Position numbers and translations under genes: made by a program. A stretch of 26,889 nt of DNA, taken from the IMG/VR virus record IMGVR_UViG_2537562020_000004; one strand, 5' to 3'. The notes beneath the pieces are model-generated. The model was not told the origin of the DNA, searched no databases, and saw only the letters and a list, made by a program, of their open reading frames with translations. The stretch comes from a virus (lineage: Duplodnaviria; Heunggongvirae; Uroviricota; Caudoviricetes). Of the stretch, positions 3,473-10,561 are shown one piece after another. Positions within the stretch are counted from its first letter, which is position 1, and the number at the start of each line of letters is the position of its first letter.

Positions 3473-4513
3473 TTAATCTTTCCATTTAAAACCATTACAT
3501 AATGTTAAAGGATTAAATGTTACAGCCTCCTCAAGATGATCCGGGGAGAAATGTGCATACTTCATAGTTTCACGAATATTCGCATGACCGAGTATACGTT
3601 GCAGCACAAGAATATTCCCGCCATTCATCATAAAATGAGCGCCGAAGGTATGACGCAGAACGTGTGTCTTTTGCCCTTCCGTCAGTTCGATATCCGTTAG
3701 TTTGAGCATCTTTTTAAACTCCTGATAGCAAGGCTTAAACATCTTTCCCTGCCTTTCAGATAATTCGTCATACAACCATTTTGGGATCGGAACGGTTCGA
3801 TTCTTTTTCCCTTTCGTTTTGGTGAAGGTCAGTTTATGTGGCGAGAGCTGGGGACGTGTCAACCTCTCAGCCTCACCCCATCTAGCACCTGTTGCAAGAC
3901 AAATCTTAACAATCATGGTGAGGTCTTCTTTTCCGTATTGCTCGCATGCCTGAAACAATTTCGGAATTTGAGACAAAGTGAGCCAAGACATTTCTTTCTC
4001 GGCTTCCTTGAAAACACGGACTCCATCAAGTGGATTTGGTAAGCTCCACTCCCCTAGCCTTTTGAGCTCATTAAATACAGCCTCAAGATATTGTTGCTCA
4101 CGATTGACAGTTATCGGTTTAGCAATCCATTTTGCCGGGTCTTTATGATAGCCATTATCTATCTCCCCCCGAAGTCGGCGGTCACGGTAATGAGCCCAAT
4201 CTTTAGCAGTAAGGCGGGATGCAATAGGGTCACCAAGTCCATTACACACGATTTGAAGTTTAGCTAACCGCGACTTACTGGCGACCAGTGCCTGTCCGTG
4301 TAAATTATGCCAAAGCTGGATAATCTCACTTAAGCGTCGGCGGTCTTCTTTCTTGCCGAGCCACGGCTTATCCTCACTCTCACTTTTCGTAAATGCTTCG
4401 AATGCCTCGGCCTCACCTTTGGTATTGAATTGCCGACGTATACGCCGCCCTTCTCGACCATTTGGATAGAGCTCGCATAACCATTTGCCATTTTTTTGCT
4501 TACTTACAGTCAT
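3473..4513 (-). CDS. int: Phage integrase, tyrosine recombinase (346 aa)
   Basis: C-terminal catalytic region HVLRHTFGAHFMMNGGNILVLQRILGHANIRETMKYAHF typical of tyrosine recombinases (R..H..R..Y); located at the prophage end next to the repressor. Confidence 0.9.
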   Translation of the reverse strand: MTVSKQKNGKWLCELYPNGREGRRIRRQFNTKGEAEAFEAFTKSESEDKPWLGKKEDRRRLSEIIQLWHNLHGQALVASKSRLAKLQIVCNGLGDPIASRLTAKDWAHYRDRRLRGEIDNGYHKDPAKWIAKPITVNREQQYLEAVFNELKRLGEWSLPNPLDGVRVFKEAEKEMSWLTLSQIPKLFQACEQYGKEDLTMIVKICLATGARWGEAERLTRPQLSPHKLTFTKTKGKKNRTVPIPKWLYDELSERQGKMFKPCYQEFKKMLKLTDIELTEGQKTHVLRHTFGAHFMMNGGNILVLQRILGHANIRETMKYAHFSPDHLEEAVTFNPLTLCNGFKWKD

Positions 4514-4535: not shown

Positions 4536-4874
4536 TTATTCCCAAAGTGCTGTTGCAGCATCCATTACAGGATCCAAAGGAATTTTTACGCCTGCATACT
4601 CCGGGCTATCTTTCCAAACAGTATCAATATTGCTCCCCTCAAGCTTTCCAGACTTTACTCCATCAATCGCAAAACCATTTAATGGGTATCGGTCATCTGT
4701 TGCTTTGTCGTACACAAAGGCATATTTACCGTTGACACAAGACACCGTAGCTTTTTCAAAAGTTAACGGCCAATCCTCACCAAACTTAGCGCCATCTAAA
4801 TCCTGTGTTTTTTCAGCGGCTGAGGCTCCAAAAGAAAGGGTAAGAAGCAGAGCTAAAAAGAGTTTACATTTCAT
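4536..4874 (-). CDS. Small secreted protein (112 aa) with N-terminal signal peptide; cargo gene between cI and int
   Basis: Start MKCKLFLALLLTLSFGASA-AEK (signal peptidase I-type site), RBS AAGGGA upstream; tightly packed between cI stop (4883) and int start (4513) on the same strand. Confidence 0.6.
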   Translation of the reverse strand: MKCKLFLALLLTLSFGASAAEKTQDLDGAKFGEDWPLTFEKATVSCVNGKYAFVYDKATDDRYPLNGFAIDGVKSGKLEGSNIDTVWKDSPEYAGVKIPLDPVMDAATALWE

Positions 4875-4882
4875 AATGTCCC

Positions 4883-5743
4883 TTACACGTGTTTTTCCAA
4901 TGTGAAAACTACAGCCCCGGCAGGAGTAATGTCTGTAATGTTGCATTCAAACTCAGCAGACTTATTTGACAACCTGACTTTTCCACCGGGCAAGCGAATT
5001 ACATCAAAAACATCAAGAGCGCCGTCGATATCAATTAACCAGCGACCATTACTTATATTCGAAGCAGAACAGTCGACAAGCCAAGAGGCAGCTACACCGT
5101 CAACAAAAATCAATTCCCCTGAGTTAGAAGGAATCATTGAGGGGTCAGGATGCCACGTTCCTGCATCCTTAAGCTCACCAGATTCAAGACGAGATTTTTT
5201 AATAGAAAAACCAGATGTGACATCTTCCCTGTTAGCTCGCATTTGCCCCTTGCCTGTTGCTAACCATTCCAGTGACGTATCGGTATCAAGAGCGCATGTA
5301 ACAACAACATCACCAGGGAAAAAATCTCGCCTTACCCATGTGCTAATTGTGCCAGAGGAAATGCCGAGCAAATCACCGAGCTCCTTTTGCATGGTAAAGC
5401 CATACGCATCAAGAATCCTACGCAAAACGGTTTTACCACCATTCGTCATAATCTCGTCATAAAGCTCTTTGCCTTTTAACTTGCAACTGGCTCGCTCGTG
5501 ATTTGCATTTGCAAGTTCTCCATTTACAAGCCAATTGATATCAGCTCCCGTGTCAAGACAACACCTAACTATGACATTGCCAGGTATTGCATCACGCTGA
5601 ACCCAGCCGCTAACGCTGTGTTTAGCGATACCTAGCAGGTCAGCCAAATCCTTTTGCATCTTGACCCCATAGGCTGACATTAAGCGTTCCAATACGCCGT
5701 TCGTTGCACTAACACGCCACTGAACATCAAGCTCAGAACTCAT
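4883..5743 (-). CDS. cI: Phage 186-type CI immunity repressor (286 aa) with tandemly duplicated N-terminal DNA-binding domain
   Basis: Two consecutive ~60 aa segments (AYGVKMQKDLADLLGIAKHSVSGWVQRDAIPGNVIVRCCLDTGADINWL and AYGFTMQKELGDLLGISSGTISTWVRRDFFPGDVVVTCALDTDTSLEWL) resembling the 186 CI N-terminal domain, plus a CI-like C-terminal domain; divergent from apl/cII. Confidence 0.85.
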   Translation of the reverse strand: MSSELDVQWRVSATNGVLERLMSAYGVKMQKDLADLLGIAKHSVSGWVQRDAIPGNVIVRCCLDTGADINWLVNGELANANHERASCKLKGKELYDEIMTNGGKTVLRRILDAYGFTMQKELGDLLGISSGTISTWVRRDFFPGDVVVTCALDTDTSLEWLATGKGQMRANREDVTSGFSIKKSRLESGELKDAGTWHPDPSMIPSNSGELIFVDGVAASWLVDCSASNISNGRWLIDIDGALDVFDVIRLPGGKVRLSNKSAEFECNITDITPAGAVVFTLEKHV

Positions 5744-5772: not shown

Positions 5773-5801
5773 TTTACAGAAAACTTTTTACGATCTATAG
5801 T
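5773..5801 (+). promoter_or_regulatory. Sigma70-like promoter (TTTACA-N17-TATAGT), candidate lytic promoter pR in the cI/apl switch region
   Basis: -35 TTTACA (5773-5778), 17 nt spacer, -10 TATAGT (5796-5801), oriented toward apl. Confidence 0.45.
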
Positions 5802-5864
5802 GGCATTCATCGACCAAGATGCACACCACTGCACTACATTTCAAACAACAGGAGATAATGCGAT

Positions 5865-6236
5865 ATGTCAGATGCAAAATCAATCTCGACGCACGACTCG
5901 CAAAACTCACAAAATCAAACTGTGCTGCTAGATCCAACACAGTTTGATGCCATCGTTACCGCCATGCTGCCAGCTCTACAGACAATGATTCGCTCCGCTA
6001 TGTCAGACACGATGACTGTGAAAGACTTCGCCGCTACTCGCGGTGTTAGCGAGCGTCTGGTCTGGCAATGGCTCGATGAGGGAGGCCTTCTCAAAGCTCC
6101 GACCAAAGACTTTTCCAACAAAGAAGAAGCTGCTAAACGAAGCCGAACCCTCGTAAACGTAAAAGCATGGCGCGATAAGCTGACTCAACAAGCGATTGAT
6201 TGTCGCTACATCGACCAGCGCACCGCTCTTAACTGA
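5865..6236 (+). CDS. apl: Apl/Cox-like HTH regulator/excisionase (123 aa as called; true start may be internal)
   Basis: Strong RBS AGGAG upstream of ATG 5865; HTH-like segment TVKDFAATRGVSERLVWQWLDEGGL; first gene of the rightward early operon opposite cI. Confidence 0.6.
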   Translation: MSDAKSISTHDSQNSQNQTVLLDPTQFDAIVTAMLPALQTMIRSAMSDTMTVKDFAATRGVSERLVWQWLDEGGLLKAPTKDFSNKEEAAKRSRTLVNVKAWRDKLTQQAIDCRYIDQRTALN

Positions 6237-6268
6237 ATTTGATTATGCAAGTTAGAGGGAATTTAACC

Positions 6269-6778
6269 ATGTTTGATTTTCAGGTTTCCAAACATCCCCA
6301 CTATGACGAAGCATGCCGCATTTTCGCACAGCGTCACAATATGGCGAAGCTGGCCGAGCGTGCAGGTATGAACGTTCAAACGTTACGTAACAAGCTCAAC
6401 CCGGAACAGCCTCACCAGTTCACGCCGTCTGAATTGTGGCTGCTGACTGACCTGACCGAAGACTCAACCCTCATTGATGGTTTTTTAGCGCAGATTCACT
6501 GCCTACCATGCGTGCCGGTTAATGAGTTGGCTAAAGACAAATTGCAGTCTTATGTCATGCGCGCAATGCGTGAACTCGGCGAACTGGCGAGCGGCGCGGT
6601 ATCTGATGAACGTCTGACCATTGCCCGTAAGCACAACATGATTGAAAGCGTTAACTCCGGCATTCGCATGTTGTCATTGTCGGCTCTGGCTCTGCATGCA
6701 CGTCTGCAGACTAATCCAGCTATGTCGAGCGTGGTCGATACCATGAGCGGTATTGGCGCATCGTTTGGTCTGATTTGA
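6269..6778 (+). CDS. cII: Phage 186 CII-like transcriptional activator (169 aa)
   Basis: Translation MFDFQVSKHPHYDEACRIFAQRHNMAKLAERAGMNVQTLRNKLNPEQPHQF... matches phage 186 CII as I recall it; RBS GAGGG upstream. Confidence 0.8.
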   Translation: MFDFQVSKHPHYDEACRIFAQRHNMAKLAERAGMNVQTLRNKLNPEQPHQFTPSELWLLTDLTEDSTLIDGFLAQIHCLPCVPVNELAKDKLQSYVMRAMRELGELASGAVSDERLTIARKHNMIESVNSGIRMLSLSALALHARLQTNPAMSSVVDTMSGIGASFGLI

Positions 6779-10102: not shown

Positions 10103-10122
10103 TACTGTATAAATATACAGTA
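10103..10122 (+). promoter_or_regulatory. LexA operator (SOS box) TACTGTATAAATATACAGTA overlapping a promoter (186 p95-like)
   Basis: Perfect CTGT-N8-ACAG palindrome with AT-rich centre; overlaps TATAAA -10-like hexamer; 20 nt upstream of the GGGAGGG RBS of the tum-like ORF. Confidence 0.75.
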
Positions 10123-10141: not shown

Positions 10142-10324
10142 ATGGTTGGCGAACATTTCAGCCGAACGCAGCAAAAGTGGGCTTGTGTGCAATTTATTGC
10201 CGAGGTATCTCTGATTGCAAACTGCAAGCCATCAGACTTAAAGCTCGCGCTCACTCTCATTGCAGACCTAGCAAACAGCGAGAATAACGAAACCGAAGAT
10301 GATAATTTTTATAAGGCTGATTAG
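10142..10324 (+). CDS. Tum-like SOS-induced ORF, N-terminal part (60 aa), ends at in-frame TAG
   Basis: RBS GGGAGGG 6 nt upstream; first ORF after the LexA box; in the same frame as the following DinI-like ORF, separated only by TAG (10322-10324) and ATT. Confidence 0.5.
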   Translation: MVGEHFSRTQQKWACVQFIAEVSLIANCKPSDLKLALTLIADLANSENNETEDDNFYKAD

Positions 10325-10327
10325 ATT

Positions 10328-10561
10328 ATGAGAATCAATATCACGTTGGATAAAGAGCAAAAAATTAGTCAGGCAACATTGGATGCACTTGAGGCTGAAC
10401 TGTACCGCAATCTTCAACCTATTTACCCAAAGACTGCTATCCGAATTCGCAAGGGCTCCGCTAATGGCGTTGAACTAAGCGGTTTGAAACTGGACGAAGA
10501 TAAAAAACGAGTAATGGAAATCATGCAGCAGGTATGGGAGGACGATAGCTGGCTGCATTAA
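10328..10561 (+). CDS. DinI-family protein (77 aa)
   Basis: MRINITLDKEQKISQATLDALEAELYRNLQ...MEIMQQVWEDDSWL resembles E. coli DinI (MRIEVTIAK...ILQETWESADDWF). Confidence 0.75.
   Translation: MRINITLDKEQKISQATLDALEAELYRNLQPIYPKTAIRIRKGSANGVELSGLKLDEDKKRVMEIMQQVWEDDSWLH

Follow-up and report, generated by a model that had tools for sequence, protein, structure and literature searches.

The cI switch region of the prophage

The window, a stretch of 26,889 nucleotides from a tailed-phage record (IMGVR_UViG_2537562020_000004), carries at positions 4883-5743 an open reading frame whose product is the immunity repressor, the working CI of a PSP3-like (Eganvirus) E. coli prophage. To the right of cI stand a pR candidate, an Apl/Cox analogue, cII, fil and a DUF5347 gene, and the arrangement of genes around cI matches the map of phage 186. 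The layout of the 186 switch is shared as well, with convergent pR and pL, an Apl analogue, cII, an FL site inside cI and an FR site before cII. The genes, domains and elements described first are the following.

3473..4513, minus strand: P2-type integrase, last gene of the lysogenic operon
4536-4874, minus strand: DUF2511/YebY-like protein between cI and int, with the N-terminal signal-like sequence MKCKLFLALLLTLSFGASA
4883..5743, minus strand: cI immunity repressor gene, 286 aa, in a tandem NTD1-NTD2-CTD arrangement
4886..5206, minus strand: C-terminal domain (CTD), residues 180-286, with a 186-CI-type oligomerisation fold
5240..5443, minus strand: NTD2, nearly invariant helix-turn-helix (HTH) domain, residues 101-168, recognition helix SSGTISTWVRR
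5504..5704, minus strand: NTD1, hypervariable and apparently added HTH domain, residues 14-80, recognition helix AKHSVSGWVQR
5773..5801, plus strand: pR candidate from a promoter scan, sigma-70, TTTACA-17-TATAGT, with spacer GAAAACTTTTTACGATC
5802..5855, no strand: conserved block after the pR -10, CATCGACCAAGATGCACACCACTGCAC, with a TGCAC repeat at 11-bp spacing
5856..5883, minus strand: putative pL, -35 TTGATT, 16 nt spacer, -10 CATTAT, weak and chosen by eye
5865..6236, plus strand: Apl/Cox analogue, 123 aa, phrog_3554
6266..6778, plus strand: cII (Phage_CP76)
10142-10324: 60-aa ORF, phrog_1993
10328-10561: DinI-like ORF directly after the 60-aa ORF, matching only the C-terminal half (71-148) of phrog_189

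Promoter scanning returned pR but not pL, and the pL listed here is proposed by analogy, from a geometry relative to the apl ATG that is the same as that of 186 pL. The Apl analogue matched no Pfam family; a weak Cox-like match (phrog_575, E 1.5e-4) covers residues 48-110, behind a low-complexity N-terminal extension of ~45 residues. The block at 5802-5855 travels with the Apl-analogue gene and not with the type of NTD1, and occupies the place that the seven Apl sites have in 186; by this analogy it is probably the binding region of the Apl analogue. A second module (CACACCACATGTAACACCATAGAAC) goes with a different Apl-type gene in other loci. The position of the DUF2511/YebY-like gene between cI and int leads to the expectation that it is expressed from the lysogenic operon, and it may be a lysogenic-conversion gene. 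PSP3 (gp28) and Pantoea relatives have kept the same gene. Further to the right, a perfect LexA box, CTGTATAAATATACAG within TACTGTATAAATATACAGTA (10105-10120), lies 22 nt before the 60-aa ORF, and together with that ORF and the DinI-like ORF it looks, by analogy with 186, like a Tum-type SOS antirepressor module split in two.

Architecture and conservation of the repressor

The cI frame opens with an ATG preceded, 6-9 nt upstream, by a Shine-Dalgarno-like AGGGG. Pfam comparison of the product gave two stretches of PF07022 (Phage_CI_repr, E 1.3e-52 overall), placed by a local HMM at residues 16-80 and 104-167, and one copy of PF16452 (Phage_CI_C) at residues 180-277 (E 1e-20). A sequence-only reading of this locus had proposed that the N-terminal DNA-binding domain is duplicated in tandem, at residues of about 20-85 and 100-165, ahead of the usual C-terminal oligomerisation domain, and had set the 286 residues against about 190 for 186 CI. 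This is borne out in full. The two segments align by BLASTP with 37 of 74 positions identical (50%, E 4e-25), the gene holds a 47-nt direct repeat of 70% identity at a spacing of 267 nt (89 codons), and 186 CI has 192 residues and a single NTD. An AlphaFold2 model built from a 73-sequence alignment (mean pLDDT 77) consists of two bundles of five helices each and a beta domain, with low-confidence linkers between them (residues 78-86 and 168-177), and holds no information on contacts between domains. The modelled CTD superposes on that of 186 CI (2fkd) with a TM score of 0.86 and an rmsd of 1.9 Å.

Both Pfam families of the window CI are those of 186 CI, at an identity of only about 30%; the match to the 186 CI structure 2fjr has an E value of 6e-22, and the 192 residues of 186 CI align to residues 105-280 only, that is, to NTD2 and the CTD. 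The additional length is thus a second homologous CI-type HTH placed in front of an otherwise complete 186-type CI. No Peptidase_S24 domain (PF00717) was matched in the Pfam comparison, so the protein is not a repressor of the lambda/LexA type, and LexA structures match it weakly through the common beta fold only. Its domain content also differs from that of the P2 C-type repressor, which has ~100 residues, is unrelated to CI and uses direct-repeat operators. The window CI departs from the one DNA-binding domain per monomer (~190 aa) of 186-type CIs in having two, and is a variant architecture within that family.

The protein itself is not new, given that it shares 97.9% identity with the 286-residue CI of Salmonella phage PSP3 (AAN08403, orf29, deposited in 2002) and 99.7% with that of E. 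coli phage vB_EcoM-613R3, and that the switch region is found in 70 of 5426 complete E. coli genomes. The CIs of PSP3, SEN1 and vB_EcoM-613R3 (97.2-99.7% identical, in the same gene order and annotated as immunity repressors) are practically the same protein, with no substantive difference. In the 120 closest database clusters, at 58-97% identity, the proteins are 277-290 aa long; the exceptions are three shorter entries, of which one is labelled partial. With one genome taken per species, ~50 tandem loci were collected across Enterobacterales together with ~19 loci of single-domain relatives; this set of about 70 related prophages served for comparison, and operator scans covered 48 tandem loci. 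The tandem form as such occurs in hundreds of Enterobacterales prophages. The duplication is therefore old and family-wide and no peculiarity of this prophage, which refines the sequence-only reading. Two tandem cI genes in the set look damaged: in Enterobacter sp. EA-1 (L041) the NTD2 helix region is scrambled, consistent with a local frameshift, and in Lonsdalea iberica (L074) the gene is cut within NTD2, leaving 215 aa.

In a survey of regulatory regions of P2-like phages, the greater length of PsP3 CI was ascribed to a longer C-terminal domain, and the C and CI repressor types were described as unalignable (Nilsson and Haggard-Ljungquist 2011, PMC3448106). Contrary to that account, the extra ~90 residues are a second N-terminal domain. 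No description of a tandem CI arrangement was found in the literature searched, nor any of the function or architecture of PSP3 CI. The bare observation of a tandem is nevertheless an ordinary one, since databases already contain the protein and many relatives share its architecture.

The first domain would be an artefact if the start codon were wrong or if two genes had been fused, and the sequence-only reading had named reassignment of the start as what would remove that domain. The chance of this is negligible: the frame is single and uninterrupted behind its Shine-Dalgarno-like sequence, the architecture is identical in more than 100 clusters and ~50 species-level genomes, the first copy is conserved in all 120 closest clusters, and it is under purifying selection. 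A short isoform from an internal start at Met99 was also considered and rejected; some homologues have L or V in place of this Met, and its ribosome-binding site is poor.

NTD1 and NTD2 are not equivalent copies. Both experience strong purifying selection within an immunity type, with a dN/dS of 0.02-0.05 for NTD1 and a similar one for NTD2. Across the tandem family the mean pairwise identity is 0.82 for NTD2, 0.57 for NTD1 and 0.50 for the CTD, so that the inner copy is nearly frozen and the outer one hypervariable, most of all in its recognition helix. At least 12 types of NTD1 helix occur among the loci compared, and NTD2, FL and FR stay fixed meanwhile. Neither domain is decaying, as both retain the family-invariant HTH positions, which in NTD1 are Y25, Q30, L33, L37, W47, R50, C61, T65 and W71.

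Single-NTD relatives (S-type CIs of 192-196 aa from Rahnella, Ewingella, Franconibacter and Citrobacter prophages; L053-L073) were compared with the tandem proteins. Their CTD is homologous, and their only recognition helix, SSGTISTWVRRDYFPGDVVV, is that of NTD2 save for conservative V/I changes. The linker before NTD2 in tandem proteins, LYDEIMxNGGKxVL, resembles the S-type N-terminus MxLDELEGGKAVL. In a rough neighbour-joining tree of the 65-residue domain, which is weak evidence, NTD2s group with S-type NTDs and all NTD1s form one clade, outside which all 62 single-NTD representatives fall. Searching the database with NTD1 alone gave a single fragment. From these sequence comparisons the tandem CI resembles an entire S-type CI preceded by one additional domain.

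Predicted operators at pR and at the distal sites

The DNA from upstream of the pR -35 to the -10 varies between NTD1 types and is conserved within each. The window spacer, GAAAACTTTTTACGATC, is specific to the AKHSVSGWVQR type and has no other occurrence in the window; Pantoea relatives with the same helix, at ~65% overall identity, keep TTTACAGrwAAyTTTTwACGATCTATAGTG. Other types have motifs of their own: GCGAT/ATCGC arrays with PANNISSWIQR, TCGAT with PSNSVSTWVQR, a direct repeat at 22-bp spacing with PAANVSNWVQRD and single 19-bp palindromes with APRSTVSNWVSR. Symmetric palindromes peculiar to a type, such as AATCGCA-TT-TGCGATT and ATGCCGCATAATGCGGCAT, stand at pR in several cases and would be the expected target of paired identical domains. 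Spacers are 85% identical between loci that share an NTD1 helix even where their CTDs are <75% identical, against 42% between loci with different helices.

Across the set, the pR spacer follows the NTD1 helix with rho 0.80 (Mantel p<0.0005) against 0.41 for the NTD2 helix, and FR follows the NTD2 helix with rho 0.50 (Mantel p<0.0005), mainly through one variant lineage, against a non-significant 0.08 for the NTD1 helix; these covariations may partly reflect linkage and ancestry, as the NTD1 DNA lies ~70 bp from pR and FL abuts the NTD2 DNA. A reading of NTD1 as a degenerate or regulatory appendage without DNA binding, with immunity differences residing elsewhere, is very improbable. Its one attraction is that 186 manages with a single domain, and it is opposed by the retention of every family-invariant HTH position in NTD1, by the low dN/dS of this domain within an immunity type and by a recognition helix that tracks the pR spacer.

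At the window pR no clear repeated NTD1 operator could be defined, the only repeats being weak copies of yTAyAGAw 22 bp apart. These (5752, 5774 and, inverted, 5793-5800) were rejected, as the same-helix Pantoea relatives do not conserve them. CGAT motifs near pR (ACGATC, CATCGAC and GCGATATG) were weighed as NTD1 sites and dropped as candidates for type-specific ones, since they are present across many NTD1 types. Enumeration of repeats and k-mers within the window was too noisy, and apparent repeats such as TTTGCATCT are merely the conserved MQK codons of both NTDs. A GATC (Dam) site at 5792-5795 abuts the pR -10 (CGATCTAnAGT) in most immunity types, whatever the NTD1 type.

The pR spacer of S-type phages contains a palindrome of 18 bp, of AACTTG-N6-CAAGTT type (AACTTGCAAAAGCAAGTT, ACCTCGACTTTTTGAGGT or AGCTTAAATAAATAAGGT). 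The looser form AnCTY-N8-RAGnT, for which 0.13 occurrences per 2.1 kb are expected, turns up repeatedly at fixed positions in tandem loci, and sites of the same palindrome family were identified in the window.

5500-5517, no strand: 18-bp FL-like site within cI, GATTTGCATTTGCAAGTT, in the ELANANH codons that lie between NTD1 and NTD2, PWM score 17.6
5904-5921, no strand: possible third site of NTD2 type, AACTCACAAAATCAAACT, lying upstream of the putative pL, score 13.7-15.0, its conservation being uninformative
6236-6253, no strand: 18-bp FR-like site, AATTTGATTATGCAAGTT, lying after the stop of the Apl analogue and before the cII ATG, score 19.4-19.7

A PWM built from six S-type pR palindromes only, used with a cut-off of 12 bits, gave 68 matches in the 324 kb of the 48 tandem loci. 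These fall into the FR zone between the Apl-analogue stop and the cII start (31), the FL zone at the junction of NTD1 and linker in cI (25), the pL/apl region (7), pR (2) and elsewhere (3). Within the window the matches are FL (17.6), 5904-5921 (13.7), FR (19.4) and two marginal ones elsewhere; one half-site is degenerate in FL and likewise in FR, and the other half-site of FL is perfect. The pattern suggests that the NTD2-type palindrome has gone from pR in tandem phages and now stands at the positions of 186 FL and FR.

The positional agreement is close. FL lies about 290 bp to the left of pR and FR about 445 bp to its right. The GenBank record of 186 places FL within cI, at nt 269-285 of that gene, and FR between apl and cII; the S-type FL, at cI nt 269-286, and the FR-like site, 13-30 nt before the cII ATG, match these positions. 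In tandem genes FL is shifted to cI nt 209-244, into the new linker, and the distance of ~290 bp from pR is kept. Distal sites of the kind that accompany 186-type CIs, about 300 bp from pR, are thus predicted, by position, in the 48 loci. Taking the best site in a 130-nt window, the FL codons rank by PWM score in the top ~1.6% of synonymous recodings (median of 31 loci), and the window FL is among the top 0.5%. In lineages whose NTD2 helix carries STAT instead of SSGT, FR is AATTCGATTATTCAAACT and FL AGTTTGCAAATGCGAATT; the two share the outer half-sites AATTCG / AGTTTG, and FL is encoded there by NSHLQT rather than ELANAN, its half-site change running parallel to that of FR.

The surroundings of the window FL show a further symmetry: AACTTGCAACTG (5478-5489) and CATTTGCAAGTT (5506-5517) are the arms of a 12-nt inverted repeat and are separated by 16 nt, and two good NTD2-type half-sites stand at a centre-to-centre distance of 32 bp. 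Pantoea relatives do not conserve the left arm. At 186 pB, the two A-type sequences are reported to have a 32 bp spacing too (PMC3675496).

Two other accounts of these sites were weighed. The window spacer holds AACTT, an NTD2-like half-site, directly before ACGATC, as it does in L006 and L008, and pR operators could be composite, with an NTD1 half-site beside an NTD2 half-site read by one chain as a covalent pseudo-dimer and FL and FR as NTD2-only extras. The flexible linkers of the model would allow such an arrangement, yet it is unlikely: most NTD1 types lack an NTD2-type half-site at pR (2 of 68 PWM matches), several have symmetric palindromes made of a single type of half-site there, and the same-helix Pantoea relatives carry AATTT in place of AACTT.

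The second account, in which NTD2 has no further need to bind DNA and owes its conservation to a role as structural spacer or as dock of a conserved SOS-induced antirepressor, and FL and FR are read by another protein or serve pE, is quite improbable. The LexA box with the two ORFs that follow it resembles the 186 Tum module, a shared antirepressor could account for a frozen domain, and FR overlaps the region equivalent to 186 pE. Against this, the NTD2 helix is the only HTH of the single-domain relatives, which carry the same palindrome in their pR spacer, the canonical place for a repressor to bind; FL and FR change along with the helix; and FL is maintained in coding DNA against synonymous drift.

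A proposed division of labour between the two domains

The reading preferred here, to which a probability of roughly 60% is given from sequence comparison, is that NTD1 reads pR and sets immunity and that NTD2 reads FL and FR for looping. It starts from what is directly established, namely the architecture, the pattern of conservation, the sites and their covariation. NTD2 with the CTD would in effect be a complete ancestral single-domain CI, keeping the ancestral specificity for AACTTG-N6-CAAGTT, which would survive in the window only at FL and FR. NTD1 would be an added, fast-diversifying HTH that reads the pR operators and in this way determines immunity specificity. Oligomers formed through the CTD, held at pR by NTD1, would loop to FL or FR through NTD2, by analogy with 186. 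We infer the pairing of each domain with its DNA, as well as the oligomers and the looping. The claim of the sequence-only reading that two DNA-binding domains change operator architecture and immunity specificity finds support in this comparative evidence.

The 186 repressor forms a 14-mer wheel, a heptamer of dimers, that loops from its promoter to FL and FR (PMC3675496). Formation of a wheel by the window CI is inferred by analogy, from the 28-30% identity and the similarity in fold to the 186 CTD. Two classes of recognition sequence are seen in 186 too, FL and FR there having ATTCAC-N5-GTGAAT and the pR spacer ATCTC..GAGAT. The single HTH of 186 CI is said to have been found by Shearwin, Dodd and Egan in 2002 to bind two distinct recognition sequences; one HTH would thus serve both classes in 186, whereas in the window CI the two classes appear to coincide with two separate domains. 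The S-type phages differ again, as the palindrome in their pR spacer implies that one domain serves both pR and the distal sites. Eukaryotic POU-domain proteins also recognise different DNA sequences through two helix-turn-helix modules joined by a flexible linker. They are unrelated to the window CI and bind as monomers to adjacent half-sites, with neither wheel nor looping, and serve as an analogy only.

Other CI proteins carry more than one HTH per chain. Klebsiella phage 4LV2017 CI (313 aa) and the clusters P0197, P0200, P0235, P0229 and P0238 have at least two of CI type; P0229 joins two Phage_CI_repr domains to a Peptidase_S24 (LexA/lambda-type) C-terminus, P0238 has three CI_repr stretches, and P0215 (525 aa) has seven HTH_3 repeats. 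In a search run without a word index and clustered at 50% identity, 12 of 74 complete matches were tandem, distant lineages included. The 4LV2017 gene has its own duplication of 108 codons, still 71% identical in DNA, and in a domain tree the other tandem copies pair mutually or with other single-NTD clades. 4LV2017 and the other tandem CI lineages are independent duplications; with its own duplication and the distant tandem lineages taken together, tandem CI domains arose several times. Multi-HTH repressors appear to be a recurrent theme, and the same two-domain solution appears to have evolved repeatedly in the CI family. No FL/FR-type palindromes were found in 4LV2017, so the division-of-labour model is proposed here for the PSP3-type lineage.

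The division of labour between NTD1 and NTD2 is apparently undescribed in the literature searched. Whether function is separated to the point that NTD1 and pR make up a swappable immunity cassette, and the frozen NTD2 is dedicated to looping at FL and FR, is judged an even chance. If so, the task that 186 lays on one HTH with two sequences would be split between two domains, and new immunities could evolve without disturbing the long-range architecture, which would explain the many immunity types among these prophages. For the study of repressor oligomerisation, DNA wrapping and distal sites, the 186 switch is the chief alternative to lambda, and it is hard to dissect because pR, pL, FL and FR compete for the same 14 DNA-binding domains; knockouts of single domains in the tandem repressor would then separate repression from looping in a natural system. 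Annotation pipelines give all such proteins the one name 'phage repressor protein CI'. On the reading preferred here, NTD1, and not identity over the whole protein, would be the predictor of superinfection immunity among P2/186-like prophages of Klebsiella, Enterobacter, Salmonella and E. coli.
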